Shown piece by piece: positions 1-28,586 of a stretch of DNA of 64,000 nucleotides. The notes below the pieces were generated by a model. That model was given only the letters and a program-made list of their open reading frames with translations. It had not been told where the DNA came from and did not search any database. Positions within the stretch are counted from its first letter, which is position 1. Each line of letters opens with the position of its first letter. Where the stretch lies: assembly GCA_964455655.1 (NCBI GenBank), contig CAYVWZ010000002.1, positions 24,502 through 88,501 on the forward strand, written 5' to 3'. This DNA comes from Candidatus Woesearchaeota archaeon (GTDB lineage Archaea > Nanobdellota > Nanobdellia > SCGC-AAA011-G17 > JACPNG01). Position numbers and translations under genes: made by a program.

Positions 1-1435
1 AATACTTATCACCCTTGTTGTAGTCATACTTGCTATCTTTCCAGGACTAAGAGATCCATTAGGCTCATTAGGAGTATTAATCAAAGGATATACTGATAGC
101 TTCAAAGAGTTTAGATCAAAACCTGATTCAGTTAAAACCCAAGAAGAAGCAACAGAATTCAATAATAGAATAACTAGAATACTTGAAGGATCAGGAACTT
201 GTGAAGGATATAAAGAAGTACAAATAATTTATAGTAAAGCAAAACGCATAGGAAAACAAGAACCACCAACATGGGAAGTATGCACTCAAAACAAACAAGG
301 AAATGTCTTAACCACTGATACCAACAAATATTGCGACAAAATCTCTGATGCACCAAAACAAGAAGTTTCATACTTTAAACAATACATACAGTGTCTAATA
401 AAAGGAAGAGATAGCACCTTAGAAACTTGTCAACAAGCAGATACTGAAGCAGATAAATTCTTACAAAATAATGGGCGATACAACCCTCAATCAGTATTCG
501 CAAAAGAAAATCCTCATGAAGTGTACGTTGCTGTTGGAGATTGTTATTTTAGAATAGGGACTCAACAAAGTCTGGTAAAAGCTAAAGCCACGTATGAAAA
601 GTATCAAACTTACGCAAAAAATAATGGGGCTGTATCTAATCCAGCAACACAAAGTCAAGTACAAACGAAAATACAAGAGTTAGAACAACAAACAAATCCG
701 AACTTATGGGAAACTGTTAAGAAAGAATATCAAGGAGATCCTGAAGCAGACTTTAATAAAGCACTAGGCGATTATCGCGCTAAGAATTATGTTTTTGCTG
801 AGCAGGAATTTAAAGATCTCGTTGTGCAGTCAGCAAGTGTCAGTACTGAATCAACAGCGTTGAAACAGATTGTAGCAAATTCTGTATACTTTATCGGAAC
901 TTCTCAACGCTTACAAAATGGCGTAGACTCTCAAGCAGTATGCGATAAACTAACAACTTCAACAGACATTATTACTTTAGATTATCCTGGATCTACATTC
1001 TTATCTCAAACAGAGATGGTTGGTCCTATAAAACCACAAGCCCTTTACGAGACTGCTCACTGTTTCAAAGAACTTCCAAGTTTAGACGCACAGGAAAAAT
1101 CACAAAAATACTACATATTGCTGTTAGAATCTTTAAACTTTAATAGAGATGATCCGCTCATACAAAATGCTATAAAAGACCTTGATCCTCACTGTAATAC
1201 CATAGAACAAAACTCTGCAATGTTTGAAGATGAAGGAAATTGCTTAGCTCAAAATGATTATCTTCGTAATAAGATTCCTGCAACATCTCCTCTAAGGAAA
1301 AATTTATTCTGCTATTGGGATACTAACACACCATTCTATACTGACGGTATTTGCCAAGCATGTTCTCATATCGGTGCACCTCAAGCAGATTCTAGCTCAA
1401 CTAATTCAGATTACACTTACAATAGCGCATGCTAA
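1..1435 (+). CDS. hypothetical secreted Cys-containing protein, 5' end outside window
   Basis: Frame 2 is open from base 2 to the stop at 1433-1435 (read directly: ILITLVVVILAIFPGLRD...). The track ORF 521..1435 starts at an internal GTG. No catalytic motif recognised. Confidence 0.45.
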   Translation, partial: ILITLVVVILAIFPGLRDPLGSLGVLIKGYTDSFKEFRSKPDSVKTQEEATEFNNRITRILEGSGTCEGYKEVQIIYSKAKRIGKQEPPTWEVCTQNKQGNVLTTDTNKYCDKISDAPKQEVSYFKQYIQCLIKGRDSTLETCQQADTEADKFLQNNGRYNPQSVFAKENPHEVYVAVGDCYFRIGTQQSLVKAKATYEKYQTYAKNNGAVSNPATQSQVQTKIQELEQQTNPNLWETVKKEYQGDPEADFNKALGDYRAKNYVFAEQEFKDLVVQSASVSTESTALKQIVANSVYFIGTSQRLQNGVDSQAVCDKLTTSTDIITLDYPGSTFLSQTEMVGPIKPQALYETAHCFKELPSLDAQEKSQKYYILLLESLNFNRDDPLIQNAIKDLDPHCNTIEQNSAMFEDEGNCLAQNDYLRNKIPATSPLRKNLFCYWDTNTPFYTDGICQACSHIGAPQADSSSTNSDYTYNSAC

Positions 1436-1553: not shown

Positions 1554-1567
1554 AAAACATTTATATA
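1554..1567 (+). promoter_or_regulatory. archaeal TATA-box-like element (tttatata) about 28 nt upstream of the ATG at 1592, leaderless-type promoter
   Basis: AT-rich TTTATATA motif at 1560-1567 in the intergenic region. Spacing to the start codon is typical of archaeal leaderless transcripts. Confidence 0.3.
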
Positions 1568-1591: not shown

Positions 1592-2041
1592 ATGGTAAAA
1601 AAAAGGCAGAGTAAGAAAGGCCTTGAGTTAAGTATCAATACAATCATTATTCTCGTTATTGTTGTCGTTGCACTCGTAGCAATTGCAGCATTTTTCTTCG
1701 GAGGATTCGGAAAACTCACTGATAGTATCAAAAATGTCTTCTTTGGAGCAAGTGGAGGATACGATAAAACCCTAGCAATTCAAAATTGTGAAACGTATTG
1801 CGATCAATTACAAAGTCTAGGCGATAGAATAGATAGTGATGCACCAGACTCTGCATATTGTACAAGATCTTTTGATGTAGACACCAATAATGATGGAAAA
1901 GCTGACAAACGATTCTATTGCTCAGATAGTGCATCCGCTGCAGTTATAGACCAAGAACTCCCTGATTATATTACCAGTAGAGATAGCCTCGATGTAAGCT
2001 GTGGAAAACCATCTGGTGGAATTATCACTTGTACTCAATAA
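1592..2041 (+). CDS. archaeal type IV pilin-like protein (class III signal peptide), Cys-containing C-terminal domain
   Basis: N-terminus MVKKRQSKKG-LELSINTIIILVIVVVALVA has a basic stretch, a KG cleavage motif and a hydrophobic helix, as in archaeal prepilins. Confidence 0.6.
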   Translation: MVKKRQSKKGLELSINTIIILVIVVVALVAIAAFFFGGFGKLTDSIKNVFFGASGGYDKTLAIQNCETYCDQLQSLGDRIDSDAPDSAYCTRSFDVDTNNDGKADKRFYCSDSASAAVIDQELPDYITSRDSLDVSCGKPSGGIITCTQ

Positions 2042-2074
2042 GTTTTTATTCTCTTTAAGTTTACACTTCTCTTC

Positions 2075-2650
2075 ATGACATCAAAAAAAGGATCAAGTAT
2101 CATTCTTACTTTTATTATAGGACTTGTTGTTGGACTTATGGTGGTAGCATTTCTTGCCAAATTTAATCCGCTTCTCTTTAGTTTATTCCCTGGAGGAGAA
2201 GATAGTAAAGAATCATTTCAAGAAATAACAGCTAAAATTATTTCTCTTCGTTCAGGGGAAGCAGCACAATACAATCTTAGAATTGCTAAAGGAGACGTAC
2301 TTATAGGATTTAGTAAAGCACAGACAGAAAATGTTGAAAGTAATAAATTCACCTCGACAGTAATAGGACCTATTGAACGCCCTGAAACTCTTTGTCCCAT
2401 AGATCTTACTTGTATCTGTTTATGTGACTCAAAAGTAAAAGCACCAGGAACGTGTAAAACTCTTGATACACAATGCTCAAAACTCGAAGGAATAGAACGC
2501 ATAGAAGGAATTATTGTTGATGACGAAGGAAAAGAAGTAAGAAAATCACAAGACGAACTCTTTATCAAAGGAAAAGCAAATATTCTTCTCTCATTACAAT
2601 TAGGAAAAGACAATATTCTTAGTGTGAAGGTCCCTGAAAACACTTCGTAA
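2075..2650 (+). CDS. archaeal type IV pilin-like protein (class III signal peptide)
   Basis: N-terminus MTSKKG-SSIILTFIIGLVVGLMVVAF. Same operon and strand as the neighbouring pilin-like genes. Confidence 0.55.
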   Translation: MTSKKGSSIILTFIIGLVVGLMVVAFLAKFNPLLFSLFPGGEDSKESFQEITAKIISLRSGEAAQYNLRIAKGDVLIGFSKAQTENVESNKFTSTVIGPIERPETLCPIDLTCICLCDSKVKAPGTCKTLDTQCSKLEGIERIEGIIVDDEGKEVRKSQDELFIKGKANILLSLQLGKDNILSVKVPENTS

Positions 2651-2681
2651 GGCTAATAAATTAAGAATTTAGTCCATTACC

Positions 2682-3734
2682 ATGTTTAAAAAAGGAGGAT
2701 TAGGTAGTGTACTCTTTCTCGTTCTCGAACTCACATTTCTCATTCTCCTTGTAGGAGGACTTGTAAGCAAAGTCCATGATCAAGCTGAAGGAAGAACTTA
2801 CGAAAAAAAATATTTTGCAAGAGACTTCGCACTGCTCTACGACACCTTACAATTAAGCAATTATCCATTAAGTGCTGATTATCAACTCCTCAAAGACAAG
2901 TACAAACTCAACATTACACAGAAAGGAGACTATTTCTATGTCGACATAACCACATTCGGAGAATCTTTTGCGAATAGATATCCCATTATTGTACATAAAG
3001 ACTTTGTCATACCCTCAACACAATTAGGAAAAGACGGAATACAAACATTGACCATTTCTGGAAATGGACAAGTTATTGGAGTAGGACAGAGCTATGACAC
3101 AGGAGAAATAAATCCCGCACTCTTTAGTAGACAAGAAGGAACTCTAGACTACCCTGTTAAAACAACAGACAGAACAGTAACTTCCTGCTTCGGATTACGA
3201 GGAGATGCACTCAATGAAGAAAACGAACCAGAATCCATAGACTGCCACAAGAAAGGAACACACTGTGGAGTAGACTTCAGAGCAAGAAACTCAGAAAAAG
3301 CAGTAGCAGTAACAGACGGAACTATTACCGCAGTACTCTTTGGAGAAAACAATTGGGGAACAATCATATTAAGACCTGATGGTATAGACAATGTTGAATT
3401 TGTCTACTTACATTTACGAAGTTTTTGCCCAACACCAGGGACATGTATCAAAGAACAACAGCATGTAAACAAAGGAGATGAAATAGGAATTACAGGAAAT
3501 ACCGTACCCTCATGGTATAAAGGAACAATCTATCCACACCTCCATTTTGAAATGATTTATGACGAAACAAGAAATCAAAATGGAGAAATAATCTCTGATA
3601 AGAAAAAAGTAGACCCCCTTGCATCAGGATTATTTAATCTCAAAGAAATAAACTTTAAACAAGGAATAAATTGCGATTTGAATAAAGAAGCATACTCCTA
3701 CAGAGAAGATATTGAACGGGGAATCGGGCCATGA
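2682..3734 (+). CDS. M23 (LytM/lysostaphin-like) metallopeptidase domain protein with pilin-like class III signal peptide
   Basis: N-terminus MFKKGG-LGSVLFLVLELTFLILLVGG. C-terminal region has the HxxxD motif (HCGVD) and HxH motif (HLHFE) with M23-type spacing (FGLRG...HCGVDF...DGTITAV...YLHL...GNTV...PHLHFE). Confidence 0.7.
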   Translation: MFKKGGLGSVLFLVLELTFLILLVGGLVSKVHDQAEGRTYEKKYFARDFALLYDTLQLSNYPLSADYQLLKDKYKLNITQKGDYFYVDITTFGESFANRYPIIVHKDFVIPSTQLGKDGIQTLTISGNGQVIGVGQSYDTGEINPALFSRQEGTLDYPVKTTDRTVTSCFGLRGDALNEENEPESIDCHKKGTHCGVDFRARNSEKAVAVTDGTITAVLFGENNWGTIILRPDGIDNVEFVYLHLRSFCPTPGTCIKEQQHVNKGDEIGITGNTVPSWYKGTIYPHLHFEMIYDETRNQNGEIISDKKKVDPLASGLFNLKEINFKQGINCDLNKEAYSYREDIERGIGP

Positions 3735-4282
3735 GCGAGTCAGACATTCCATTCAAAGAAGGAGGAGAATGGTATTTTATTCTTTACAGACTAGGACTAG
3801 CAATAATTGTCGTTGCAATAGTGTTAGTGATGACCAGCAAGTATGAGGGAAGAGACATTGACGTAACACCATTAGAATCAGAACTCCTCCTTGATAGAGT
3901 GTATTACTCAGCAACGTGCTTTGCTGCTAACGACAACATACGAGGATATGCAGGAGAACTTGATATGGACAAATTCACTCAAGAACAACTCACTACATGC
4001 CTTCATGGACCCTTCTATATTAAAGTTGAATTACTCAACCAGAAACAAATACTCTATAATGATGAAGATCTGTATATACGCAACGAACCCTACTGCAAAT
4101 TCTCAACATTTACTTGCACAACAAGATTAGTTCCCGTACTTATTAGAAACGGAAAAATTACAACAGACACCCTCAACATCACTGTTATTATCCCAAAACA
4201 AGATAGAGACCAAACTATTGATACAAGCATTACACCCATAGAACCATCAATACCTTCAGACAAAACAACGAGGGCTGGATGA
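3731..4282 (+). CDS. hypothetical membrane-anchored protein
   Basis: ORF overlaps the previous stop (ATGA-type coupling). One TM helix (FILYRLGLAIIVVAIVLVM). Confidence 0.45.
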   Translation: MSESDIPFKEGGEWYFILYRLGLAIIVVAIVLVMTSKYEGRDIDVTPLESELLLDRVYYSATCFAANDNIRGYAGELDMDKFTQEQLTTCLHGPFYIKVELLNQKQILYNDEDLYIRNEPYCKFSTFTCTTRLVPVLIRNGKITTDTLNITVIIPKQDRDQTIDTSITPIEPSIPSDKTTRAG

Positions 4283-4824
4283 AAAAACTCAACAAGAAAG
4301 GATTCCTTGAAGAATTCATGACCGAATTCCTAGCAGCAGTTGCAATAGTAATTATTGTGATAGTATTCGGACTCTTATTCAATTTCGCAGGAGCATTCAA
4401 AGTATTACCAGAAGTTACTCTTACTCTTGCAGAAACTGATGCAAAAATCATTCATCTTGTCTATCTCAAAACTCCCTATGAAGACGGAACCGTAAGCGAT
4501 GAACTCATTCGTATAAGCATGGAAGAAGATGAGAGAAAACAAGAAGAGAGAATAGCAAAACTCCAAGAATTCAATACAGAATTTATTAAACCCTATCCAG
4601 GAATGGTCATTAACGGACGTATTCAAACAAAAGAAGACAACATCCTTCTCAAACCAGTCTATTCTGAATCACGAGAAAAAGAACCAACACTCTTACAAAA
4701 ATCCTCTGAAAGCACTATTACTCTTCCCACACCAAAAGGAGATATTAATGTGAGTATTGGATTAGTCAATATTTACGATATCCAAATCTATAAGCCCTCA
4801 TCAGGTGAAATCAATGAACATTAA
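4279..4824 (+). CDS. archaeal type IV pilin-like protein (class III signal peptide)
   Basis: N-terminus MKKLNKKG-FLEEFMTEFLAAVAIVIIVIVFGLLF. Overlaps the neighbouring genes. Confidence 0.5.
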   Translation: MKKLNKKGFLEEFMTEFLAAVAIVIIVIVFGLLFNFAGAFKVLPEVTLTLAETDAKIIHLVYLKTPYEDGTVSDELIRISMEEDERKQEERIAKLQEFNTEFIKPYPGMVINGRIQTKEDNILLKPVYSESREKEPTLLQKSSESTITLPTPKGDINVSIGLVNIYDIQIYKPSSGEINEH

Positions 4825-6250
4825 GCGAGACAAGAGAGGATTAGTATTTGGACCCTATGCTGCTGCAGCACTCCTCGGATTACTTACCTATGCACTCATT
4901 GCCTTTGTAGGAAATCCCCTTCCAACACCTCAAGAAATTGGAAGCATTCAAGCAGAACTTATCAAAAATATTGGCACAGCAGAAGCACAACATTATTATC
5001 AAGAAAAACTTGCAGAACAAAGCACAACAGAAACTCTCTACTCCTTAAGCAAGACAAGCGGACTCTCACAAGAACAAATTAGACAGTGCGATAGAGGAGA
5101 TGGCATTTATGTATACAATGAACAATGCAATCCCACAAAAGCAATCCAGGAAAACTTCTTAAAAAATTTCAAACTCATCCATGATGAAAAACTAAAAAAA
5201 CAATCCATTAGCATTACCTCTTATTCTTTAGAACATAATACGCTCATAGGAACATATCGAATTATTGGAATTACAGGAGCACAACAATCTTACAACATCC
5301 AAAATAAACTTACTACAGAAAAAACACCTGGAAAAATACTTACAGCACCACCAACATATCCCGAATGTTCCCCTGGAACCTCAAGAGATCAATGCTATAA
5401 CAAACTCATTTCAGAAATAGCACAACGTTATGGAATGGATCCTCTTATGATCAAATCAATCATCAAAGTAGAATCAGCATTTAATTCAACAGCAAAATCT
5501 TCTGCAGGAGCACTAGGATTAATGCAGCTCGTTCCTTCATCAGCAATAGCAGATCTTAAAGACACAAGATACTCTGCAGGAAAGTATTGCAATGCACGAG
5601 GACTGAAAGAAGAAATTATTAATGATCCTAACCTCCTTAATGGAGACAATCCCTCTATATTCACTCCAGCAGTTAATATTGAACTAGGAACTTGCTACTA
5701 CGCATTCCTCTATGATCATTTTAATGGAGATCATCAATTAGCACTTATTGCATATAATCAAGGAGTTGGTGCAACAGAGAGAGCTCAAGGAAATCCAACC
5801 AATGCAGAAACAACAGATTACATTAACAAAGTCCTTACCGTCTATCATGCTTCTGAAAATAAAGACTTAACATTTATTACACTCACAAACCCTACACTTC
5901 CTTCTAAAATAACTGGAAGAGCTGTTGAAGAAGTAAAAGAGCAAGCCCCCTCAAAAATTATAGGAAATATCTATGTTGATTATAGTTTCAATGTAAGCGT
6001 TCGCGGAACACTCGATGACTACAAAAATATTTACGAAACTACGCAAGAAAAAGGAAACTGCCTCCTCGGAGATAATCCTCAATCATGCTACCATAATGAA
6101 CACGGTTATACATGGAAAGTTACGATGAGGGAGGGATATCCATTAATTACTGTTATAACCTCTACAAGAGATCCATTACACCCATCGCGAGAACCTGTAA
6201 CCATAACATTCTATGCAGATCCTCAATGGTTAAAAAATCCTAATCCTTAA
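4805..6250 (+). CDS. lytic transglycosylase (SLT/GH23 lysozyme-like domain) protein, N-terminal membrane anchor
   Basis: SLT signature YGMDPLMIKSIIKVESAFNSTAKSSAGALGLMQLVP...ALIAYNQGVGA with the catalytic ES. Confidence 0.7.
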   Translation: MKSMNIKRDKRGLVFGPYAAAALLGLLTYALIAFVGNPLPTPQEIGSIQAELIKNIGTAEAQHYYQEKLAEQSTTETLYSLSKTSGLSQEQIRQCDRGDGIYVYNEQCNPTKAIQENFLKNFKLIHDEKLKKQSISITSYSLEHNTLIGTYRIIGITGAQQSYNIQNKLTTEKTPGKILTAPPTYPECSPGTSRDQCYNKLISEIAQRYGMDPLMIKSIIKVESAFNSTAKSSAGALGLMQLVPSSAIADLKDTRYSAGKYCNARGLKEEIINDPNLLNGDNPSIFTPAVNIELGTCYYAFLYDHFNGDHQLALIAYNQGVGATERAQGNPTNAETTDYINKVLTVYHASENKDLTFITLTNPTLPSKITGRAVEEVKEQAPSKIIGNIYVDYSFNVSVRGTLDDYKNIYETTQEKGNCLLGDNPQSCYHNEHGYTWKVTMREGYPLITVITSTRDPLHPSREPVTITFYADPQWLKNPNP

Positions 6251-6277
6251 AAAGAAGTTTCATACTGAGAATAAACA

Positions 6278-7696
6278 ATGCCTAAGAAAAAAAGAGGAAT
6301 ACGAGGAAAGAGAGGAGAACAGAACTTAGGAACACCTCAACGAGTAGAAATAGACTGGAAAAATCCTTTCACTTCAGCACCATCAGAACGAGAACCTATT
6401 GTTGTTCAAAATACTATTCACGCAACACTCAAAAAAGATAAGGGAATATTCGGAGACTTTGCAAAAAAACTCATACTTACAGCAATCATTGTAGCAGTGT
6501 TATTTTTCTTCTTGTTCATTTTTACCGATTGGGGTCCCTTACTCGTAACCAATGGAGGAATATATTTTCAAAAAGCAATTGCAATAGTCTCCACAACAGC
6601 TGGAGGAATTAGAACCACATTAACAAACCCTGGAGAAACATTCGGGTCATGGGATAATCCAGAAGCAACGAGACTAGGCTCAGAAGAGAGAGGAGTATTC
6701 ATAAGTTCATTTAAAGCGCAGAGAGATTATGAACAAGGACAACAAGCAGACCTTCAAGGACAAGTACTTATTAAAAATCTAAAAGATACTCGTCCAATGA
6801 GTCTTAAAGTTTCATGCTATACAAAATATACTCCCCCTGGAACAATAGAACCAGAAATTACTCCAGGACTTGTAACGATACCCTTATTTCAAAAATCAGA
6901 ACCTCTAGAATTACAAGAAATACTTGTTGATCCTGAAGCACTTACTATTCTCAAAAACGGAGGAGAATTCCAATTCGGTGTTCATTGCATTATACCAAAA
7001 GAAGCATCAGATAGTGTTGTATACACTGGAGATAATACTCTCATTACAAGAGAAGCAATATTACGTATAGACTATAGAGCACAAACACAGTCCCTACTTA
7101 AAGTTGTAACATCTCCATCTCCCTATAGCAAAGACCAACTCGATAATCTCGCACTCTCTTTACGAAATCAAGGAATTGTTTCGAGAGAGGGAAAACTCGG
7201 AGCACAAACATCAGGAGGTCCTTTAGATCTCCAGGTAGACCTTGGAATCGCACAACCACTTACACCAGGTTCATTCCCTACTGAAGGAATACAAACCATT
7301 CCACTAACTATCGGACTCACTGATAGTCAAGGATGGGAAGGACAACTTACAAGCATTTACAACATTGAAATCTTAGGATTACCAAATTTGCTGAGGATTG
7401 ATCAGGGATGTAGAGACTTTGAACGAGGAAGCGGATTGCATGGCGAGCCTGCACTAAAACAAGAAATTATCCAAGAAGTAAATGATTGCATTAAAGAATT
7501 ACAAGATGATTCAAAAGCACAATGCGCATATAATCCTAGAAGATTGCGAGAAGCATTCTCATGCCAACTAAAACTCGAAACTCTTGGAGAAACTCCAAAC
7601 GTTCAAGATATTGTTGTTGAAGCAGACTATGATTACAGTATTAGCCAAAAAGGCGGAATTAATTATCAAAAACCACGAGAGAGTAGTACTCCTTAA
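6278..7696 (+). CDS. hypothetical membrane-anchored secreted protein
   Basis: Basic N-terminus followed by a TM helix (LILTAIIVAVLFFFLFIF). No recognised domain. Confidence 0.45.
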   Translation: MPKKKRGIRGKRGEQNLGTPQRVEIDWKNPFTSAPSEREPIVVQNTIHATLKKDKGIFGDFAKKLILTAIIVAVLFFFLFIFTDWGPLLVTNGGIYFQKAIAIVSTTAGGIRTTLTNPGETFGSWDNPEATRLGSEERGVFISSFKAQRDYEQGQQADLQGQVLIKNLKDTRPMSLKVSCYTKYTPPGTIEPEITPGLVTIPLFQKSEPLELQEILVDPEALTILKNGGEFQFGVHCIIPKEASDSVVYTGDNTLITREAILRIDYRAQTQSLLKVVTSPSPYSKDQLDNLALSLRNQGIVSREGKLGAQTSGGPLDLQVDLGIAQPLTPGSFPTEGIQTIPLTIGLTDSQGWEGQLTSIYNIEILGLPNLLRIDQGCRDFERGSGLHGEPALKQEIIQEVNDCIKELQDDSKAQCAYNPRRLREAFSCQLKLETLGETPNVQDIVVEADYDYSISQKGGINYQKPRESSTP

Positions 7697-7740
7697 GATC
7701 ATAGAAATACATATAAAACATCGTCCAGGAAAATTCCATA

Positions 7741-8658
7741 ATGAAAAAGAGTGTTATTGTTATTCTTCTCGTAGCAATTCTTCTCACAGGATGTACCTTT
7801 GTTAATAATTTAACACCAACAACAAGACAAGCAGCAACAGCAGAAACACCACATAAAGGAATATCTGTACAATCAATAGGATCAGTAACAAACCAAGATA
7901 CAAATCCTGTCCCCTTAACAGAAAATTTTCCTTACACCTACGGAGCAGTTATTAGAAATTATGACCTTAATCCATTACTCGTAACCGTAAGATTAAGCGA
8001 TGGTACTGATGATGCTTATGGTGGATTAGAAGAATATGGAGAAAGCACCTTGTTTTCAGACATGATGATTGACACAGGGGAAGAACTCACTGTTGGTCCT
8101 ACAAAATTTAGTTATCGTCAAAGATCACAAAGCATCACCACATTTCCTGTACCCGTATTTCAAACCTTTGCAACTTATGACTACAGCTTAAAAACTGGTG
8201 ATGCAGTAAAAATACCCACTATACCAGAACATTGCACAAGTGGAAGAGAAAATCCAGAACGAGAAAACATCTGCGATGTTAGGATACAACCCACAGCAGG
8301 AAATAATAATGTAGCACCCATTAGAGTTGAAGATATTTCAGCAAACTTCATTCCTGAAGACGGAGCAGTATCAGCAACAGTAAGTCTGAGACTACAAAAT
8401 GTTGGCGGAGGGTACATCCCCGATTACACATTAAATCCTATAGCTGTAAATGTAGCTATTGATGGCTTTGCGCCATTCACTTGCATACCAGAGGAAATCT
8501 ACTTAAAAGAACTCTCTGCAGATGTACAATGTACATCTTATGCTACTAACCTTAAAGCAGGAAGAGCTGAACCAAAAGTACTTACAATTGCAGCAGGCTA
8601 TCGCTATGAAATAGCTACAGGACAATTAACAGGAGAAATAATCAACACAGAGGAGTAA
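7741..8658 (+). CDS. hypothetical lipoprotein
   Basis: Signal peptide with lipobox-like LLTGC (MKKSVIVILLVAILLTGC). Confidence 0.5.
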   Translation: MKKSVIVILLVAILLTGCTFVNNLTPTTRQAATAETPHKGISVQSIGSVTNQDTNPVPLTENFPYTYGAVIRNYDLNPLLVTVRLSDGTDDAYGGLEEYGESTLFSDMMIDTGEELTVGPTKFSYRQRSQSITTFPVPVFQTFATYDYSLKTGDAVKIPTIPEHCTSGRENPERENICDVRIQPTAGNNNVAPIRVEDISANFIPEDGAVSATVSLRLQNVGGGYIPDYTLNPIAVNVAIDGFAPFTCIPEEIYLKELSADVQCTSYATNLKAGRAEPKVLTIAAGYRYEIATGQLTGEIINTEE

Positions 8659-8664
8659 AATAAC

Positions 8665-9642
8665 ATGCAAGACTACAACGCAATCATAGCAAAAATAATG
8701 GAAACAACAGGAAAATCACGAGAAGAAATAGAAGCAAAAGTACAACAAAAAGTATCACAATTATCAGATCTTGTAAGCAAAGAAGGAGCAGCGCACATTG
8801 TTGCAAATGAATTCGGTGTTAAAGTCTACACCCCTGAAGTAAAACAACGATATCGCATCAATGAATTAAAACCAGGACTACGAAGCGTTGAAGTCGTCAT
8901 GAAAATCGTACAAAAATACGAAGTACGAAGTTATTCACGAGATAATAGATCAGGAAAAGTAGCATCAATACTCGCTGGCGACGAAACAGGAATGATACGA
9001 CTCGCAGTATGGGACGAAACCCTCATTAACAAAATACAACAATCAAAAGAAAATGATATTATTCTTATCGAAAATGCTTACGTCAAAGAAAATAATGGTT
9101 TCAAAGAATTACACATAGGAAATAAAGGAAGCATAGAAGTTAATCCTAAAGGAGAAAATGTTGGAACTGTAAGCGCAGCAAAGAAAGAACAAGCATCTTA
9201 CGAACAAAAAAAACTCAACTCCCTACGCCCAGGAGATAGTGCAAGAATAACAGGAACTATCGTACAATTATACGAACCACGATTCTACCAAGCATGCCCT
9301 GATTGCAGTAAGAAAGTCGTCGATGGAAAATGCCCCTCACACGGAGCAATACAGCACGTCTTTGTACCTATCTTAAACTTTGTCTTAGATGATGGAAGCG
9401 ACAATTTACGCGTAGTATGCTTTAGAGATACTGTAGAACAAGTCCTAGGCGTAGGAAAAGAACAAGTAGAAAATATTAGAAAAAATCCAGCACTATTCCA
9501 AGAATATTTACGAACCATACCAGGAAAACAATATACCATCACAGGAAAAGCAACAAAGAATGAAATGTACGACAGAGTAGAAGTCACAGCAAATACTGTA
9601 GAAGCACTAAACGTTCACGCAGCATTACAAGAATTACTCTAA
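8665..9642 (+). CDS. replication protein A (RPA)-like ssDNA-binding protein with OB fold and C4 zinc ribbon
   Basis: N-terminal helical region (EEIEAKVQQ...LVSKEGAAHIVANEFGV), an OB-fold-like segment (ILAGDETGMIRLAVWDE) and the zinc ribbon CPDCSKKVVDGKCPSHG. GGAGG-like RBS upstream. Confidence 0.6.
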   Translation: MQDYNAIIAKIMETTGKSREEIEAKVQQKVSQLSDLVSKEGAAHIVANEFGVKVYTPEVKQRYRINELKPGLRSVEVVMKIVQKYEVRSYSRDNRSGKVASILAGDETGMIRLAVWDETLINKIQQSKENDIILIENAYVKENNGFKELHIGNKGSIEVNPKGENVGTVSAAKKEQASYEQKKLNSLRPGDSARITGTIVQLYEPRFYQACPDCSKKVVDGKCPSHGAIQHVFVPILNFVLDDGSDNLRVVCFRDTVEQVLGVGKEQVENIRKNPALFQEYLRTIPGKQYTITGKATKNEMYDRVEVTANTVEALNVHAALQELL

Positions 9643-13587: not shown

Positions 13588-14367
13588 ATGCCAGACAAAG
13601 AGAGGAACACTATGTCAAGTAATGACCCTATAGGAATTGAACATCTTTTAGATGATAGCACAGATCCATTCATGACCGCTCATCAAACTGTCGATCGCGC
13701 TTTTGACAAACTTGCTACATTAATACCAAGAAATCTTAGAACTCAAGCATTCTCTATTTTAGCTCAAGCACGCGATGCACACGAAACACAAAGAAAAACA
13801 TATGGAGAACGACGTGTTGAAGCAATAGTTGATCCACTCACTAGAGTCTTTAACAAAAAAGGTTATCATGAAGTAGGCGATCTATGGTTAAGCGCTGCTC
13901 AAGATCTCTATAGAGAATCAGGACAACAACTTACTGGTGCTTTAAGTGTTCTAGATCTTAATTACTTTAAAAATATTAATGATAGATATGGTCACGCAGT
14001 AGGGGACGAATTACTTTCAAACGTAGGACAAGCACTTAATGAAGTTACACGATCTACAGATACACCTCTTCGAGTAAAAACACGAGAAGCAGCAGCACGC
14101 ACTGGAGGGGACGAGTTCGCAATCCTTCTTTTAGCAATACCTGTCCAAGGGCATGAAACAGTGCTCAGCAACGTACAAGACCGTATCAATAGAAGAACTG
14201 CACAATTATTTAGTCAGAGTCATCCTCAAATTTATGCTGATAACACCACTCACTTAAACGCTATTGCAAGTATGGGCAGCGCAGTCTACGGCCCTGATGG
14301 AGAAGACCTTTTTGATCTCTTTAAAGTAGCTGACAGAAATCTCTATAAAGTTAAAGCAAAGCGCTAA
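13588..14367 (+). CDS. GGDEF domain protein (putative diguanylate cyclase), no obvious sensor domain
   Basis: DPLTRVFN...LSVLDLNYFKNINDRYGHAVGDELL...RTGGDEFAILL...ADRNLYKVKA carries the GGDEF hallmarks with an intact GGDEF motif. No RxxD I-site. Confidence 0.75.
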   Translation: MPDKERNTMSSNDPIGIEHLLDDSTDPFMTAHQTVDRAFDKLATLIPRNLRTQAFSILAQARDAHETQRKTYGERRVEAIVDPLTRVFNKKGYHEVGDLWLSAAQDLYRESGQQLTGALSVLDLNYFKNINDRYGHAVGDELLSNVGQALNEVTRSTDTPLRVKTREAAARTGGDEFAILLLAIPVQGHETVLSNVQDRINRRTAQLFSQSHPQIYADNTTHLNAIASMGSAVYGPDGEDLFDLFKVADRNLYKVKAKR

Positions 14368-18285: not shown

Positions 18286-19023
18286 ATGCAATCAAAGAGG
18301 AAGGGGCAAACAACCATATTTGTTACAGTAGGAATACTCATTCTTATTATCATTAGCATCGGAGTCTACTACAGAACAACACTCAAAGACGCAATCCTAC
18401 CACAAACAAATCCCACTACCTTTAGTGATGAAGAAGAAAACGTTAGAAACTATGTAGAAGAATGCTTCCAAGACGGATTACAAAATGCCGTATTCTTAAC
18501 ACAGAAACAATCAGGACATTTGTACATTTCAGGAGAGACCTTTAATCTACACGGCGCAGAAATACCCTACGCATACACCCAAAATGGAAGCCAAGTATTA
18601 AACTCTGAAAGTCTAGAATCACAGTTCCAACAATACCTCATACAACAACTCTTCCAATGCACCAAACCATTAAACGTTACCTTCGAACAACCTGCAACAA
18701 CCGTTACTATCGATACTGAAGGAGTAAACGCGCGACTCATTTACCCCTTTACCTTAAGCCTTGCACAATCAAACATACGAAATGATTACCCCTACACCTA
18801 CGCTATCAAAGTACCCCTCTATAGTTTTCTAAAAATAACTCAATCTGTAGCGGATGCACTCGTCAGTCAACCACAAGAATTTCCTCTAGGATTATTAGTT
18901 AGCCAAAATATCTTCAAAACAGAGACTGTCATACTTGACAACGCAACACTTATACAATTAACACCACTCAACGCAACAAATGAAACTTACATTATCGCTG
19001 TAGAAAATGGTGATACTCAATGA
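18286..19023 (+). CDS. archaeal type IV pilin-like protein (class III signal peptide RKGQ-TTIFV)
   Basis: [27 protein letters not shown]. Shares a conserved E-x-C-x-x region with the 45114 and 50411 proteins. Its stop overlaps the next start. Confidence 0.6.
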
Positions 19024-21284
19024 AAAAAACAATACTCATCGCATTACTCATTATCATCTTAAGCTCTAGCACTCTCGCTGTCGCAAACTTAGAAAACTTT
19101 GCAGCACTGACCTTTAATCAATACGGAGCAATGGGAATAGAAAAAGCAACAGGAAGTAGCGAATCAGCACAACTCATCGCAAGCTTTGTTGGAGGGGACC
19201 CAACAACAGCAGCATTAAACGCATTTCTCGCACAAGCAGGAAAGAAAGATCCCGATATAGGACAATTACAACAACTTGCAACATGCACTGTTAACCCCCT
19301 AGGATGTGCACAAAGCCAAGTATTAGAACAAACAATGAAATCATTAACACCAGAACAAGCAAAAGCAGTAAACCTCCTAAGTCAAGTCCAAGGAAATGCA
19401 CAATTAGTTGAAGCACTCTTTGAAAAAGGAGAAGAAGGAACCGCAAGTGTTACCGAAAAAGGAGATCTAATCCTTAAAGATGATAAAGGAAATATTCGTT
19501 TACGCCTACCACCAGATACAAAAATAGAACAGGATAAAGAAAATCCTAACAAATATACTTTAAATTCCATGCAAGGAAAAGAAGCGCACTTCTTAGATCA
19601 AACAATAAGTGGTGCTGAAAGCTTAACACTCACTAGAAATCCAGAATTAGGAATAGAAACCATCACCATAACAAAAGGAACCAGTATAACTTATTGTACT
19701 GAGACAGGAACAAATTGTTTAAGTAATCTTGGAGAAGGAACAATCATAACCTCTCACATTATCGATAGAGCTGATGGAAAAAAAGCTACACTTCTCGCTA
19801 GACTACAAACAAAACTTGAGAAAGATACTCCTCACATCACCATCGACGGATATACCTATGATGACCTCAAGAAAGGAGATGTCATTAACTTTGCACGCTC
19901 TGACAATGGACCTAACGAACTAAGAATGATCAGAGCAAATGACGCGTATTCTTTAATGCTCGATGACCAAAAAACAGTCTATGGAAGCTTCGCAATCACA
20001 CGAGAATCAGGAAGAGATCAATACATGACATTATTCACCGGAAGCAGACTTGATACCAACGCAGGAATACCCAATAATGATGTAAGCATTCAAACAAAAG
20101 AACCAATCTACATCAATCTCAATGCAAACAATCTCAATAACTGCGGAGAACGCTGTGCAATAAGCATTATTGGAAATAAATTAACATCAGAACAACTCTC
20201 ACCCTTAACCACTATAATAAAAAAAATTAATGGAGCAGAAGCATACAAACTGACCCAAGCATCAGGATTCACCGTATTTTTAGATAGCAATACTATAAAC
20301 TTCAAAGAGAACGCAGACGCAAGAATAGAAACACAGGGAATAGAATATCACTTCCATAACGGAATGCTCAATCCTGTAACTATAGGAGAAACAGCAATCA
20401 CAAAAAATCTCAAAAACCATCCGACCATCACCTATACTGATATGAACGGACATCAAATGTCAGCAGCACCAACTCAAAGAGGAAATGATATACTCATAGG
20501 ATTTGCTCTAGAAAATGGAGAACTACAAAACACCTTCGCAGTAGAAGAACCCCTACCTGTAGAAGAAAAAGCTATTGATGAACTCCTTGAAAGAGACCAA
20601 GTAACTGCAGAAGAAATGCCTTGGAGCCTCCCACTCGTTACAGAATATTCTTGTAAAGATGGAACAAGAGTTGTATCTAAATCTGTCCACCAACATGATT
20701 CTGTATTCACTGAAGTTGCACCACGTTATGGATACGACCCATCAATACCAAAAGTCGTAATGGATTTAGAATCAAGCGGAAGACCCACAGCATTATCCCC
20801 TCAAGGAGCATATGGACTTATGCAGATCCAAGACCCTACCATGAGAGGACTATTACGAAAACCAACAGGAGACATGTGTAACTCCCTAGGAAAAGTTCAA
20901 GACACAAAACCAGGAATTTACTGCGCATGTAAATTTGATCAATACCCACCAGTAGGAGACTCAAAAAAACTTAGAGAACAAGCAAAACCAGCAGTAGATA
21001 GAGCACTCTGCTATTTACGATACAATGAAGCTGTTTTCATAGAAAAAGGAATTCTAAAAGAAACCGATTCCCAAGAAAAGAAATTAGCATTCTCTCTTGC
21101 AGCATACAATGCAGGACCTGATAAAGTTGAAAAATATGGAGGAGTACCACCATTCAAAGAAACACAGAAATTTGTAGAATGTATAACAAACTATGCAAGT
21201 TCTGTTCAATTAGCACGCACAGACCTCTTAGCTGGACAACAAATAGCTAGTGCTAGACCACCACCAACATCATCAGGCGGTTAG
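19020..21284 (+). CDS. large secreted protein with C-terminal lytic transglycosylase (SLT) domain
   Basis: Signal peptide [25 protein letters not shown] motifs [34 protein letters not shown] and [12 protein letters not shown]. Confidence 0.7.
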
Positions 21285-22126
21285 CGTAGAATTAACAATA
21301 CAAGATTACCTAACCATAACGTTATGATCAATGCAATAAAGAACGAAGGAACAAACGGAATACCATCCTTTACAAGAACTCTTTTTACTTTTAATTTCTT
21401 TAATAAATTCATTTGCTGCTTAGAAACACCAGGTTCTTTCATTGAATAAATTAATTTACCTTTTACAATAACATCTTCAGCAATCCAATCACCCTCTGTA
21501 AGATTTTTTACTTTCAAACGCCTAAACATACACGTTGTTTCTACTGTTTTAACAAAGAGATAGAGAACAACATACCCCATAGATATTCCCCCAAGTATTA
21601 AGAATAATGTGCTATAAATAGTATTTCTCACTGCAAAACTTCCAAGAAGAAATAATACCCCTAAACCACTAAACACCTCACACTGAACTCTAACCTCTTT
21701 AAAGATTCTTTTCAGACCATTGAAGAAATGCCTATGATAACGAATAGCAAGATATATACTCCATACAATTCCATACCCTGCTCCAACAATAACTAGATTT
21801 ACTAAGAAATGAAATAAAAACCATGGTACTATAGAAATAGAACCAAACAATGCTCCAACACCCATCAATAATTTTGTGTCTCCACCACCCCATTGTCGAG
21901 AATAGTACAATCCTTCACCAATAATAGCCATTACTGCTAGACCAACTAAACCAGCAAAAAACATCATCACATCATGTTCAACAATAGCACCAATAGCTCT
22001 TATACCAAGCCCTGCAGCAATTAAACTAAAACTAATCCAATTAGGAATTTCACGACGCTCAATATCCGTTATAGAACCAGCAAATAATCCAACAAGGCCT
22101 ACAATAATAAGAATAAGCTCAATCAC
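21281..22126 (-). CDS. archaeal prepilin/preflagellin peptidase (A24 family, PibD/FlaK-like)
   Basis: Polytopic membrane protein with the two Asp motifs ([12 protein letters not shown] and GGGDTKLL, the GxGD type). Confidence 0.7.
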
Positions 22127-26288: not shown

Positions 26289-27584
26289 ATGCTTCGTAAC
26301 AAAAAAGGTGTTGTAACTCCTACTGCTGGAACTGACATTGCAGCGCTTGTTCTTCTCATAGGACTTTTCATTGTAGCATATGTTCTTCTCCTTCCTCCCG
26401 CAGATCGTGATCAACTTCTTAAAGAAAATCCAAACTACAGAGATGGAAATGGAAGTTATGGTGATTATGGCCCCATTAACGGAATAAGTTTACTCAGCGC
26501 AATACCCGGAGAACTACATCCCTTTGAAAGAAACACTATCAAAAGAGATTTTCCACCAGCAATACTTTTCACAAGAGCAGAATCTAGCACTCTTAATTTA
26601 GCAACAGCATTAGAAGTAAAAAAATCACCCTTTAGCGAACAAACAAAGACCTACACCTTCTCAGCAGATAGACTAGAAGATATTACCGGAGCAAAACTCT
26701 ACTTCTTCATAGAAGAAGGAGACGGCACATTCTACATAGAACTTAATGGACAAACCATCTTTGAACAAGAAATAGGAAGCAACGATATCCCCATTGACAT
26801 CCCCGCAAACGCACTACGCGCAAACAATAACTTAAAGATGGGAGTGAGAGGAAGCTTATGGGAAGGATACAAACTCAAAAATGTCTACATCAAGTTTGAT
26901 AAAAACTACGCAAACACCATCGTACGAAGAAGCTTTGAACTAAGCCCAAATGAACGAAACGGCGTAGAAAGCGCAAAACTCAGTTATTATCTTAATTGTA
27001 TAAAAATAGCACAAAACGGCTACTTAACCATACTCCTCAATGATAGAATACTCAAATCAGACTTTGTTGTCTGCGATGTAGGAAAACAAACAATAGACCT
27101 ACCAAGAGAAAAACTACGAACAGGAACAAACAATCTCGAATTTAGAATAGATCAAGGAGACTATGAATTAAACGACCTTACTCTTGAAGTAAAGACAGGA
27201 CAAGCAAGCTATCCAACCTACAACTTTGAAGTTGATGATGACTACTACTTCGATATTAATACAGACTGCTTCGCAAGCTGTAGAGATAATTGTTATGATG
27301 ATTGTGGAAGCGACAACGACTGCTTCGATGTATGCCTCGATGACTGCGACGCAGAATGCTCAAGAGGAGAAGTAGTACTTGAAATACGATTCGTTAATGA
27401 TGAAGACAATAGAAGAAAGAAAGGATCAATAACTATCAATGATAATCAAATTAATTTCAATACAGACGATACACTCTACACAAGAGATATTACAGACACC
27501 ATACGAAGAGGAGATAACGTACTCAAAATAATACCCCAAAGTGATATGGAAATCGCAGATCTCAGAGTCGTGCTTATACGATAA
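26289..27584 (+). CDS. hypothetical membrane-anchored secreted protein with a compact acidic Cys-rich module
   Basis: N-terminus MLRNKKG-VVTPTAGTDIAALVLLIGLFIVAYVLLL is a possible class III signal. Internal module CFASCRDNCYDDCGSDNDCFDVCLDDCDAECS. Confidence 0.45.
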   Translation: MLRNKKGVVTPTAGTDIAALVLLIGLFIVAYVLLLPPADRDQLLKENPNYRDGNGSYGDYGPINGISLLSAIPGELHPFERNTIKRDFPPAILFTRAESSTLNLATALEVKKSPFSEQTKTYTFSADRLEDITGAKLYFFIEEGDGTFYIELNGQTIFEQEIGSNDIPIDIPANALRANNNLKMGVRGSLWEGYKLKNVYIKFDKNYANTIVRRSFELSPNERNGVESAKLSYYLNCIKIAQNGYLTILLNDRILKSDFVVCDVGKQTIDLPREKLRTGTNNLEFRIDQGDYELNDLTLEVKTGQASYPTYNFEVDDDYYFDINTDCFASCRDNCYDDCGSDNDCFDVCLDDCDAECSRGEVVLEIRFVNDEDNRRKKGSITINDNQINFNTDDTLYTRDITDTIRRGDNVLKIIPQSDMEIADLRVVLIR

Positions 27585-27638
27585 ACTTTATAAATTCCAA
27601 GACAACAAATAACATTCATTAAAAAGAGGCAAAAAACG

Positions 27639-28586
27639 GTGAAAAAAATACTCATTGCAATTTCAATAACATTACTTCTTATTCTTACTGCATGTACCAA
27701 CTCTGGAAATAGCTCATTACCAACAGGAAGATATGTTGGAGGAGATGAAGGATTAACAATCTCTTTCGTAGAAGGAGAACCACCAGAATCAGTACTCGAT
27801 GATGGACAAGAATCATTCGATATAACACTCCTTGCAGAAAATACAGGAGAAGAAGACATTGCACCAGGACAAATCATCGTCACACTCAACGGAATAGAAC
27901 AAAACGCATTCAAACTACGAAGCTTAACAGAAAGAAACGATATTGAAGTTCTCGGCGTAAAAAAACTTAGAGACAGAATACAAGACGGAGAAAGCACAGA
28001 AGTACGATTCAAAGATGCAAGCTATCAAGACCTACTACCATTTGACTTCCCCGTAGACCTACGCGCAGACGTATGCTATGAATACGGAACAACAGCAGTA
28101 GCAGACGTATGCCTCAAAAGCGAAGCAAGCGATAGAAAAGCAGATGACCAATGTGATATTGACAACGATGCTATCAATGTAGAAAACTCAGGAGCACCAG
28201 TTCATGTTGAACAATTCACTCAAAGAGCAAGAGGAAGCGAAGCAATACAATTCACCTTCGATGTTGTAAAAGTAGGAAGTGGAGACGTATTCCCCACAGG
28301 AACCTTTAGCGACTCATGCGGAATTAATTCTGATGTAGATGATCAAGTTAATGTTAATGTAGCATTCTTATCACGAAGTAATAATCCCACCATTGACTGT
28401 TCAACACTCAATGGAGACACAGGAGTTGTACGATTAATCTCAGGAAAGAAAACAGTACGCTGTACCGTAAGCACATCAGGATTACAAGACATTGCATTCG
28501 AAAGACCATTGAGAATCAAACTAGACTATGTCTACAAAGACAGCATTGAAGCAAACTTCTTAGTAGAAAGCACAGAAGACCAATAA
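27639..28586 (+). CDS. hypothetical lipoprotein
   Basis: MKKILIAISITLLLILTAC lipobox-like signal. Confidence 0.5.
   Translation: MKKILIAISITLLLILTACTNSGNSSLPTGRYVGGDEGLTISFVEGEPPESVLDDGQESFDITLLAENTGEEDIAPGQIIVTLNGIEQNAFKLRSLTERNDIEVLGVKKLRDRIQDGESTEVRFKDASYQDLLPFDFPVDLRADVCYEYGTTAVADVCLKSEASDRKADDQCDIDNDAINVENSGAPVHVEQFTQRARGSEAIQFTFDVVKVGSGDVFPTGTFSDSCGINSDVDDQVNVNVAFLSRSNNPTIDCSTLNGDTGVVRLISGKKTVRCTVSTSGLQDIAFERPLRIKLDYVYKDSIEANFLVESTEDQ

Follow-up and report, generated by a model that had tools for sequence, protein, structure and literature searches.

Murein hydrolase domains on pilin-like proteins in a type IV filament locus of a DPANN archaeon

The analysed sequence is a stretch of 64,000 nucleotides from Candidatus Woesearchaeota archaeon (assembly GCA_964455655.1, contig CAYVWZ010000002.1, positions 24,502 to 88,501 of the forward strand), which is referred to as the window in the following. 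Close to its left edge, between positions 1592 and 8658, eight co-directional genes (ORF1–ORF8) are encoded on the forward strand, two of which code for pilin-like proteins that carry domains of murein hydrolases: an M23 metallo-endopeptidase domain in ORF3 and an SLT (GH23) lytic transglycosylase domain in ORF6 (Table 1). The distances between consecutive genes are 33, 31, −4, −4, −20, 27, and 44 nt, three of these junctions being overlaps of stop and start. An initial annotation of this sequence had described eight tightly packed, co-directional genes with such overlaps, and all of the ORFs were found where it had placed them. The boundary given there at position 1592 had to be corrected, as the unit runs upstream through positions 1–1435 and past the edge of the window. 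Instead of being a self-contained operon, the eight genes form the distal portion, with the subunit genes, of a type IV filament locus that spans about 16 kb and comprises about 20 genes. They were recognized as the distal half of a complete locus because genes for an ATPase, a platform protein, and pilin-like proteins lie upstream and because a gene for an A24 prepilin peptidase is present.

Table 1. Features of the window treated in the text. Positions count from the first nucleotide of the window, and a slash follows the predicted leader peptide.
Feature	Position	Strand	Description
g499	1–1435	+	Pilin-like, C-terminal 478 of 499 codons; MRRKKVTKG/RIDISTIIYLLLALGVV; same strand as ORF1
Candidate archaeal promoter	1554–1567	+	BRE-like AAAACA, then TATA box TTTATATA; read from sequence
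ORF1	1592–2041	+	149 amino acids; candidate major pilin with conserved cysteines; MVKKRQSKKG/LELSINTIIILVIVV
ORF2	2075–2650	+	191 amino acids; minor pilin-like scaffold; MTSKKG/SSIILTFIIGLVVGL; KKG and transmembrane N-terminus
ORF3	2682–3734	+	350 amino acids; pilin-like N-terminal module (amino acids 1 to about 135) and C-terminal M23 metallo-endopeptidase
M23 catalytic domain of ORF3	3258–3566	+	Amino acids 193–295; alignable with LytM and with the M23 domain in PDB 6yj1
ORF4	3731–4282	+	183 amino acids; one N-terminal transmembrane anchor, without conserved K-G leader
ORF5	4279–4824	+	181 amino acids; minor pilin-like; MKKLNKKG/FLEEFMTEFLAAVAIV
ORF6	4805–6250	+	481 amino acids; pilin-like scaffold (amino acids 1 to about 160 and 385–481) split by SLT/GH23 domain
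SLT catalytic domain of ORF6	5405–5818	+	Amino acids 201–338; catalytic Glu in VESAFN
ORF7	6278–7696	+	472 amino acids; K/R-rich cytoplasmic N-terminus, one transmembrane helix (about amino acids 58–90), extracellular tandem β-sandwich (Ig-like)
ORF8	7741–8658	+	305 amino acids; lipobox protein; MKKSVIVILLVAILLTGC, LLTGC read from sequence
Pilin-like protein	18286–19023	+	245 amino acids; MQSKRKG leader (RKG/QTTIF); overlaps start of next gene
Second SLT protein	19020–21284	+	754 amino acids; Sec-type signal peptide; C-terminal SLT (Pfam SLT, 44 bits)
A24 prepilin (class III signal) peptidase	21281–22126	−	281 amino acids; 8 transmembrane segments; GGGD motif; Peptidase_A24 48.5 bits (cutoff 26.5)

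Both enzyme domains scored above the Pfam thresholds, with 47.1 bits for ORF3 against Peptidase_M23 (gathering cutoff 28.7) and 78.9 bits for ORF6 against SLT (gathering cutoff 21.3). In ORF3, residues H194, D198, H244, H286, and H288 (the HxxxD motif, the His of YxHL, and the HxH motif) are invariant in three orthologs and align to LytM, where HYGVD and HVHF correspond to HCGVD and HLHF of ORF3; the closest solved M23 structure is PDB 6yj1, deposited as ORF007. The VESAFN, GLMQL, and AYNQG motifs of ORF6 match those of MltC and Slt70 in alignments and are retained in P0002 and L012 (related contigs and proteins are referred to by labels of this kind). They correspond to ES with the catalytic Glu, GLMQ, and AYNxG, which we take to be the motif definition of the family-1 lytic transglycosylases. 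The initial annotation had predicted from the sequence an M23 domain fused to a protein with a class III leader and an SLT domain with its catalytic Glu, and the scores and intact motifs bear out both predictions, including the comparison with domain models that had been proposed as a check. The nearest NCBIfam models were murein DD-endopeptidases for ORF3 and lytic transglycosylases of the MltC or flagellar type for ORF6, all below their equivalog cutoffs; against the flagellar-assembly lytic transglycosylase model NF047373, ORF6 reached 64 bits. With their catalytic residues intact, the two proteins are predicted to cleave peptide cross-links (ORF3) and to form 1,6-anhydro-MurNAc (ORF6). A word-indexed search among 5.8 billion clustered proteins retrieved one full-length relative of each.

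The carriers of these domains were assessed by their N-termini, using as criterion for class III signal peptides a short basic leader with Gly or Ala at position −1, a basic residue at −2, and about 20 hydrophobic residues thereafter. The sequence [KR][KR]G followed by a hydrophobic stretch of ~20 residues forms the N-terminus of ORF1, ORF2, ORF3, ORF5, and ORF6. Four such signal peptides had been noted at first; those of ORF1, ORF2, ORF3, and ORF5 were retained, but the count is five, because ORF6 also begins with a KRG leader (MKSMNIKRDKRG/LVFG). Over the whole locus ten proteins fit the motif (g36, g294, g42, g49, g499, ORF1, ORF2, ORF3, ORF5, and ORF6). Among the 263 ORFs in the window that start with ATG and encode at least 35 amino acids, N-termini of the leader type occur in nine real ORFs (a tenth match is a spurious ORF of 39 amino acids), and six of these nine sit in the operon or beside a second SLT gene. 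The K/R-G leader is conserved in the orthologs at the ORF3, ORF5, and ORF6 positions, even though the remainder of these proteins is down to about 20–35% identity, and the KKG/KRG leader of ORF5 in particular is found in the L002, L012, L015, and L016 orthologs. Cleavage by the archaeal class III signal peptidase depends on position −2 being basic and position −1 being Gly (PMC3387779), and the leaders described here are presumably cut by the A24 peptidase. Based on leader and hydrophobic helix, ORF2, ORF3, ORF5, and ORF6 are regarded as pilin-like, with a putative carrier fold; ORF2 additionally showed a weak match to DUF7287.

ORF1 is the best conserved of the pilin-like proteins, with a nearly identical N-terminus and identities of 58% to L012 and 53% to L014; the phmmer E-values against L016 and L017 range from 1e-27 to 1e-30, and a metagenome search started from the ORF1 alignment returned one locus, L014. 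The TATA box TTTATATA, located 24 nt before the ATG of ORF1, and the AAAACA sequence in front of this box indicate that ORF1–ORF8 may form a sub-operon under a separate promoter, which would presumably drive a leaderless or near-leaderless transcript. A scan for sigma-70 promoters and terminators gave counts at or below the shuffled expectation and thus was uninformative, as expected for an archaeon. Since it is the most conserved of these proteins and has its own TATA box, ORF1 is the best candidate for the major subunit.

Among the remaining proteins of the unit, ORF4 has orthologs in L002, L012, L015, L016, and L017, in which the leader motif is not kept. The ORF7 ectodomain contains six invariant Cys residues, and the protein is putatively adhesin-like or structural. 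ORF8 showed weak matches to the LPAM and lipoprotein models of Pfam and NCBIfam and carries at the end of its signal peptide a lipobox of the form [LVI][ASTVI][GAS]C, which agrees with the lipoprotein gene initially assigned to the operon; lipid modification is a prediction. ORF8 orthologs come after ORF7 in L002, L013, L015, L016, and L017, and the lipobox reads LLTGC in the window, LIAGC in L002, LVSAC in L016, and VISGC in L017, while L015 has no clear lipobox. The gene for RPA starts 6 nt behind ORF8 on the same strand (8658–8665) and also directly follows the ORF8 ortholog in L002, L015, L016, and L017, so that a locus for a surface machine and a replication gene are kept adjacent across deep divergence.

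The region upstream of the window was read from a near-identical contig (L001/L003, 99.3% identity). In L003 it comprises, on the same strand, genes for an ATPase, a platform-like protein, several small membrane proteins, and five proteins of 36, 294, 49, 42, and 499 amino acids with K/R-G leaders. The longest of the five, g499, starts 64 nt before the window (according to L001/L003), ends 156 nt upstream of ORF1, and had no match in Pfam or NCBIfam. The ATPase (760 amino acids, L003:475–2757), which is also present in L016 and L017, matched the Pfam model T2SSE with 50.6 bits (cutoff 24.9) and the NCBIfam models TadA (115 bits) and FlaI (112 bits), both below the equivalog cutoffs. Its stop codon is overlapped by the gene for a 726-amino-acid protein with at least eight predicted transmembrane segments, which is strongly conserved in L012, L016, and L017 and has 27% identity (E 1e-69) to the product of the gene that follows the type IV pilus (T4P) ATPase in a Thermoplasmata metagenome-assembled genome (MAG). 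Judging from its topology, the synteny, and this one distant homolog, it is a putative platform protein; a scan of genome contigs with it yielded only the distant Thermoplasmata locus, which is devoid of hydrolases. The A24 peptidase gene is located 13 kb downstream of the eight genes, at a place beside a HIT-family gene that is conserved in L009 and L016, and its product scored 44 bits against the NCBIfam model FlaK, below the equivalog cutoff. The archaeal pilin pathway invoked initially is thus represented by the A24 peptidase and by the T2SSE ATPase and platform gene upstream. That murein hydrolases are linked to this pathway stands as regards the domains and the pathway genes; the term secreted is less apt, because the genes are the distal part of a conserved filament locus, and hydrolase modules on pilin-like subunits describe them better.

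Three of the upstream genes are tiny (36, 49, and 42 amino acids; L003 7051–8348), encode just a KKG leader and one hydrophobic helix, and are kept in L012, L014, L016, and L017. By analogy with Flp-type pilins, which are about as small, their products could be the true major subunits instead of ORF1.

The window encodes RPA, RadA/Rad51 (290 bits), SRP54, FtsY, eRF1, TruD, Dus, aIF2α, GINS51, and PAC2. All named organisms among the closest RadA relatives are MAGs of ‘Candidatus Woesearchaeota’, ‘Nanoarchaeota’, or ‘Nanoarchaeia’, which identifies the organism as a DPANN archaeon. Independent assemblies show the same gene order, as does L002, whose RadA is 88% identical. The G + C content is flat at about 0.36, and in a comparison with core genes, as had been suggested initially, the hydrolase genes appeared native: their G + C content, G + C content at third codon positions, and codon usage lie inside the housekeeping range, with codon distances of 0.09–0.12 against 0.09–0.30 for the housekeeping genes. 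The contig is therefore archaeal, in line with the initial annotation, and neither bacterial nor chimeric, as indicated by RadA, RPA, SRP54, eRF1, aIF2α, GINS51, PAC2, and the independent assemblies. An artefact or foreign DNA, whether through a contig that is bacterial or chimeric or through the integration of a virus or mobile element with lysins of the phage type, might explain why the M23 and SLT domains match PHROGs of phage lysins, tail proteins, and endolysins and why the nearest solved M23 structure is PDB 6yj1 ‘ORF007’. The PHROGs matches are restricted to the catalytic domains, the other six proteins having none. Moreover, relatives in viral contigs as well as integrase and capsid genes were not found, and the arrangement recurs in several independent assemblies, while divergent genomes have it at the same chromosomal position beside RPA and RadA. 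A chimeric contig was rejected on the grounds of the independent assemblies and the native composition, and a prophage or mobile element on those of the PHROGs pattern and the lack of relatives in viral contigs; the probability that the locus is artefactual or foreign is close to negligible.

The ORF7 family comprises 18 representatives among 1.84 billion proteins, and although their alignment was too divergent for pattern design, the contigs encoding them were used for comparing the loci. Eight related loci, several of them fragmentary, were recovered, and synteny was seen in at least seven further contigs from metagenomes. L012 (NCBI MAG GCA_964551095.1) has the same genes in the same order from the platform protein through ORF7 and differs in its downstream context. 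Its enzyme proteins reached 66.6 bits for M23 and 79.8 bits for SLT, and identities to the window amount to 27–29% for ORF7, 58% for ORF1, and 71% for the C-terminus of the platform protein. Synteny was also observed in L002, L015, L016, and L017, where RPA, YdjM, and RadA come after the locus just as they do in the window. Both L014 and L015 originate from Hainich groundwater (well H51); L015, from the 0.1 µm fraction, is named Nanoarchaeota in NCBI, and L016 was obtained from the 0.1–0.22 µm fraction of Tara Oceans. Not all members of the wider clade share the synteny: in L008–L011 (RadA 76–77% identical) the locus is missing beside RadA. Compared to L002, the operon proteins are 40–51% identical, whereas the neighbouring housekeeping proteins are 72–88% identical, a fast evolution as expected for surface or interaction proteins.

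The enzyme content differs between these homologous loci. In the window, L002, and L012, the ORF2 slot holds a scaffold only, the ORF3 slot a scaffold with M23, and the ORF6 slot a scaffold with inserted SLT. L016 encodes M23 as a separate ORF of 222 amino acids with the same C-terminal tail and has a scaffold only (258 amino acids) in the ORF6 slot; L015 and L017 contain scaffolds only in both the ORF3 slot (140 and 115 amino acids, respectively) and the ORF6 slot (263 and 269 amino acids), and in none of these three contigs was an ORF2 slot identified. The short proteins in the ORF6 slot align to residues of about 10–160 and 387–474 of ORF6 with four invariant Cys and lack the central SLT domain, and the short ORF3-slot proteins of L015 and L017 represent the N-terminal module alone. 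In L014, the contig of which stops before the ORF3 and ORF6 slots, a scaffold with a GH24 lysozyme domain (383 amino acids) occupies the ORF2 slot. The C-terminal half of this protein matched Pfam Phage_lysozyme with 27.8 bits (cutoff 22.3) and aligns to residues 3–151 of T4 lysozyme, with the equivalents of Glu11, Asp20, and Thr26 present. Because the enzyme content varies in this way, the hydrolase domains are interpreted as swappable modules on conserved pilin-like carriers. The same variation bears on the idea that the enzymes are self-directed and open a wall polymer of the producer for passage of the filament. SLT-type enzymes are common inside loci for bacterial envelope-spanning machines, specialised lytic transglycosylases being associated with flagella, T3SS, T4SS, and T4P, and the match of ORF6 to NF047373 would agree with such a role. 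L015 and L017, however, possess the same scaffolds without hydrolase domains, which are thus not needed to build the machine. Pseudomurein contains neither MurNAc nor the MurNAc-β1,4-GlcNAc bond that is cut by GH23 and GH24, Mur-type genes were not seen in the window, and we know of no DPANN archaeon that makes murein. Self-directed remodelling accordingly appears very improbable.

Some of the compared contigs show further peculiarities. L015 encodes one secreted protein of 1804 amino acids (1847–7261) at the place that in the locus of the window is taken by the array of small pilin-like genes, ORF1 and ORF2 among them. The RadA of L015 (16226–18391, 721 amino acids) is interrupted by an intein that contains a homing endonuclease domain of the LAGLIDADG type. 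In the Woesearchaeota contigs L008 (7489–12957) and L009 (7462–11929), which have a RadA 77% identical to that of the window, a Bro-N protein, several genes without family assignment, and a reverse transcriptase (RVT_1) are located directly after RadA, and this region may be a retroelement or mobile island.

The common substrate of the three unrelated families M23, GH23, and GH24 is bacterial murein. We consider it somewhat probable that the locus serves the contact-dependent breaching of the wall of a bacterial partner, for attachment or access. This reading is favoured because an enzyme for glycan strands and one for cross-links together are what it takes to open an intact sacculus. The recovery of two related contigs from ultrasmall filter fractions (0.1 and 0.1–0.22 µm) was also counted for it, as was the lack of wall-synthesis genes among the annotated genes of the window. 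In the mechanism envisaged, the precursors would be inserted into the membrane, the A24 peptidase would remove the leader after Gly, and ATPase and platform protein would polymerise the major subunit, most likely ORF1. The modular minor pilins (ORF2, ORF3, ORF5, and ORF6) would be placed at the tip or base of the filament with their enzymes facing outward, a placement suggested by analogy with bacterial modular and minor pilins. Once a bacterium is contacted, SLT would cut the glycan strands and M23 the peptide cross-links, so that the sacculus would be opened locally and the ultrasmall archaeon could anchor to, or reach into, its bacterial host or prey. ORF7 and ORF8 may act as cell-proximal adhesin or base components.

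Several observations weigh against wall breaching by a filament of this kind. Leader cleavage, filament formation, enzyme location, and substrate are all deduced from the sequences. None of the pilin-like proteins matched a curated pilin family in Pfam or NCBIfam, and an AF2 model of ORF3 calculated from an alignment of two sequences had a pLDDT of 35 and supported no pilin fold for the carrier. The 726-amino-acid protein had no match to Pfam T2SSF or in NCBIfam, and ORF3 and ORF6 contain no recognisable peptidoglycan-binding domain. The M23 ortholog of L012 has no basic leader and starts approximately at the predicted mature N-terminus; leader cleavage is thus not obligatory for this protein, and the helix at the N-terminus could simply serve as an anchor in the membrane. 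As the loci of L015 and L017 have no hydrolase modules, wall degradation is not the primary role of the machine. Finally, the absence of genes for the synthesis of peptidoglycan or pseudomurein refers to the 64-kb window.

Some of these points would suit a bindosome-like display for scavenging, in which the class III N-termini would only tether the enzymes to the surface of the archaeon itself, either within a short pseudopilus or directly in its membrane, where they would digest peptidoglycan debris for amino sugars and amino acids, and no specific host would be attacked. The missing wall-binding domains and the leaderless M23 ortholog of L012 agree with this, as do an amino-acid permease encoded in the window and weak matches of the ATPase to BasE and of ORF1 to BasC. 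These matches (49 bits for BasE and 13.8 bits for BasC) are far below the cutoffs of 1000 and 260, respectively, and no genes for substrate-binding proteins, ABC transporters, or the catabolism of muropeptides or anhydro-MurNAc were found in or next to seven syntenic loci. In addition, a lytic transglycosylase together with a cross-link endopeptidase suits the opening of intact sacculi and not the harvesting of soluble fragments, and scavenging is therefore considered unlikely. Interference competition, with the hydrolases acting as antibacterial weapons like zoocin A or the haloarchaeal M23 enzymes and the pilus link being a convenience of delivery or regulation, seems less plausible still, and indeed quite improbable. 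Bactericidal M23 hydrolases of archaea have been demonstrated, their genes being distributed patchily as under an arms race (PMC12352652), and the hydrolase modules are likewise patchy among the homologous loci. Hydrolases used as weapons are normally secreted freely and equipped with cell-wall-targeting domains, whereas ORF3 and ORF6 are anchored and have no targeting domain. A DPANN organism with a reduced genome is also likelier to rely on other cells than to be their competitor.

Contact-dependent breaching may be extended to a more specific proposal, namely that the locus encodes the host-breaching organelle of a DPANN clade parasitising bacteria: a type IV pilus whose modular tip pilins with SLT or GH24 and M23 domains would drill through the sacculus, the modules being exchanged according to the wall chemistry of the host. 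We regard this extended form as tentative and rather doubtful, and we know of no bacterial host shown experimentally for DPANN archaea of the Woesearchaeota or Pacearchaeota type. If true, an apparatus for episymbiosis or predation of an archaeon on bacteria would be defined in molecular terms for the first time, and the set of hydrolases encoded by the locus could serve as a marker of host range. Irrespective of this, the locus connects murein hydrolases, both physically and in evolution, with a conserved surface machine and offers defined targets for testing, and the ORF1 and ORF7 families can be used as markers in metagenome mining. The orthologs with and without modules represent a natural experiment in which enzymes are add-ons to pilin-like carriers.

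A second SLT module and other genes for surface proteins are located further downstream in the window. The pilin-like gene at 18286–19023, whose product is weakly similar to a pilin-like protein encoded at 45120, precedes the gene of the second SLT protein, the SLT domain of which has 28% identity to that of ORF6. Both genes (18286–21284) sit between the HIT-family gene and the A24 peptidase gene, and because HIT directly abuts A24 in L009 and L016, they are regarded as a lineage-specific insertion or loss. Similar pairs are found at 45120–49794 and 50411–56076, where a pilin-like gene (KRG/QVT[IV]FVI leader) overlaps the start of a gene for a giant, Cys-rich secreted protein. These giants have 1315 amino acids with 106 Cys and a C-terminal transmembrane segment, and 1735 amino acids with 117 Cys; both contain repeats of MopE-type metal-binding motifs and are 43–52% identical over their best-aligned segments. 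The combination of a pilin-like gene with a large surface protein seems to recur as a unit in this genome. At 26289–28586, a protein of 431 amino acids with KKG and a transmembrane segment is followed by a lipobox protein (LLILTAC) of 315 amino acids, which echoes ORF7 and ORF8; no family match was obtained. A GGDEF-domain (diguanylate cyclase-type) protein is encoded at 13588–14367 and also in L002 (12111–12842) according to the precomputed Pfam assignments; to our knowledge, c-di-GMP signalling domains are unusual in archaea. The gene at 32400–33140 codes for a ConA-like lectin/glucanase protein with a Sec-type signal and without a pilin-like N-terminus (Laminin_G_3, 86 bits), and PF13385 appears in the list of carbohydrate-binding modules given for the modular pilins of bacteria (PMC8179133).

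Several known systems resemble parts of the locus. It may in principle work like the bindosome of Sulfolobus, the cargo of which consists of sugar-binding proteins feeding ABC transporters, whereas here the cargo would be hydrolases and no transporter is linked; membership in the bindosome (Bas) system was rejected owing to the low BasE and BasC scores mentioned above and the lack of substrate-binding proteins in the locus. Specialised lytic transglycosylases such as VirB1, EtgA, FlgJ, and the flagellar enzyme of Borrelia (NF047373) open the sacculus of their producer and share with ORF6 that a gene of the SLT family lies inside the locus of a filament or secretion machine. Unlike in these cases, the producer is not expected to have a sacculus here, and homologous loci without the domains exist. 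An SLT domain is paired with a peptidase domain also in Gram-positive conjugation systems.

For Woesearchaeota and Pacearchaeota, SLT/GH23 proteins and the idea of bacterial hosts or ‘vampiristic’ predation have been published (PMC8204110; PMC9723730; PMC10936187), and earlier records of murein-like lytic transglycosylases are cited in the first of these papers (Rinke 2013 and Castelle 2015, as cited in PMC8204110). These proteins belong to the same lineage and the same GH23/SLT family, and for them, too, it was inferred that a murein-less archaeon targets bacterial walls. They differ, however, in being large, free-standing, and extracellular, with up to about 3000 amino acids, and are neither linked to a pilus nor paired with M23 nor scaffolded on pilins. 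Compared by description, ORF6, with its 481 amino acids, its class III-type N-terminus, and its position in a T4P locus, does not fit fam00969 (Castelle et al. 2021), which is confined to Woesearchaeota and Pacearchaeota, whereas the second SLT protein (754 amino acids, Sec signal peptide) resembles the large extracellular class and may belong to that family. The capacity described here had initially been called little characterised. This does not apply to the murein hydrolases of DPANN archaea and the idea of an attack on bacteria, both of which were known, but to the integration with a pilus: murein hydrolases linked to archaeal pilus machinery were not found in the literature searched, which was not exhaustive.

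The haloarchaeal M23 enzyme ‘Woldo’ kills bacteria, and M23 homologs were reported from four Nanoarchaeia genomes (PLoS Biol 2025, PMC12352652). Like ORF3, the haloarchaeal enzymes are M23 proteins of bacterial type in a murein-less archaeon, with conserved catalytic residues and a patchy distribution. They are soluble, secreted weapons of modular structure with peptidoglycan-binding domains, whereas ORF3 has no binding domain and is encoded in a pilus locus. As the screen for archaeal hydrolases required a wall-binding domain (PMC12352652), it probably would not have captured carrier-fused enzymes like ORF3, which suggests that screens of this design overlook carrier-fused peptidoglycan hydrolases of archaea. 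With regard to lifestyle, a parallel exists in the Saccharibacteria/CPR episymbionts, ultrasmall cells with reduced genomes that were shown experimentally to find and bind their bacterial host by T4P (PMC9894109, PMC11623550). Their pili are bacterial T4P, for which hydrolase modules on pilins are not reported in these two studies, and in the present case host binding is deduced from genes.

The closest structural counterparts are the modular type IV pilins of bacteria, such as PilB (vWA) and PilC (lectin) of S. sanguinis and GspK with its inserted domain (Raynaud et al. 2021, PMC8179133), in which an effector is grafted on a pilin carrier and predicted to be exposed at the tip (PMC8179133). 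The proteins described here share with them a leader ending in Gly, a carrier with a hydrophobic α1, a grafted effector, a location of the genes among those of minor pilins, and the occurrence of the carrier with and without module. The graft is C-terminal in ORF3 and in the ORF2 ortholog of L014 and inserted in ORF6, as it is in GspK. The differences are an archaeal leader (basic residue at −2, no Glu5), a pilin fold of the carrier that is putative, and modules that are murein hydrolases instead of adhesion domains. The survey that defined the bacterial modular pilins was based on the bacterial pilin signature IPR012902 (PMC8179133). By its sequence features, the locus is best classed as a putative archaeal modular-pilin system with enzymatic, murein-directed modules, which would extend the modular pilin principle of bacteria to archaea and to enzymatic effectors.

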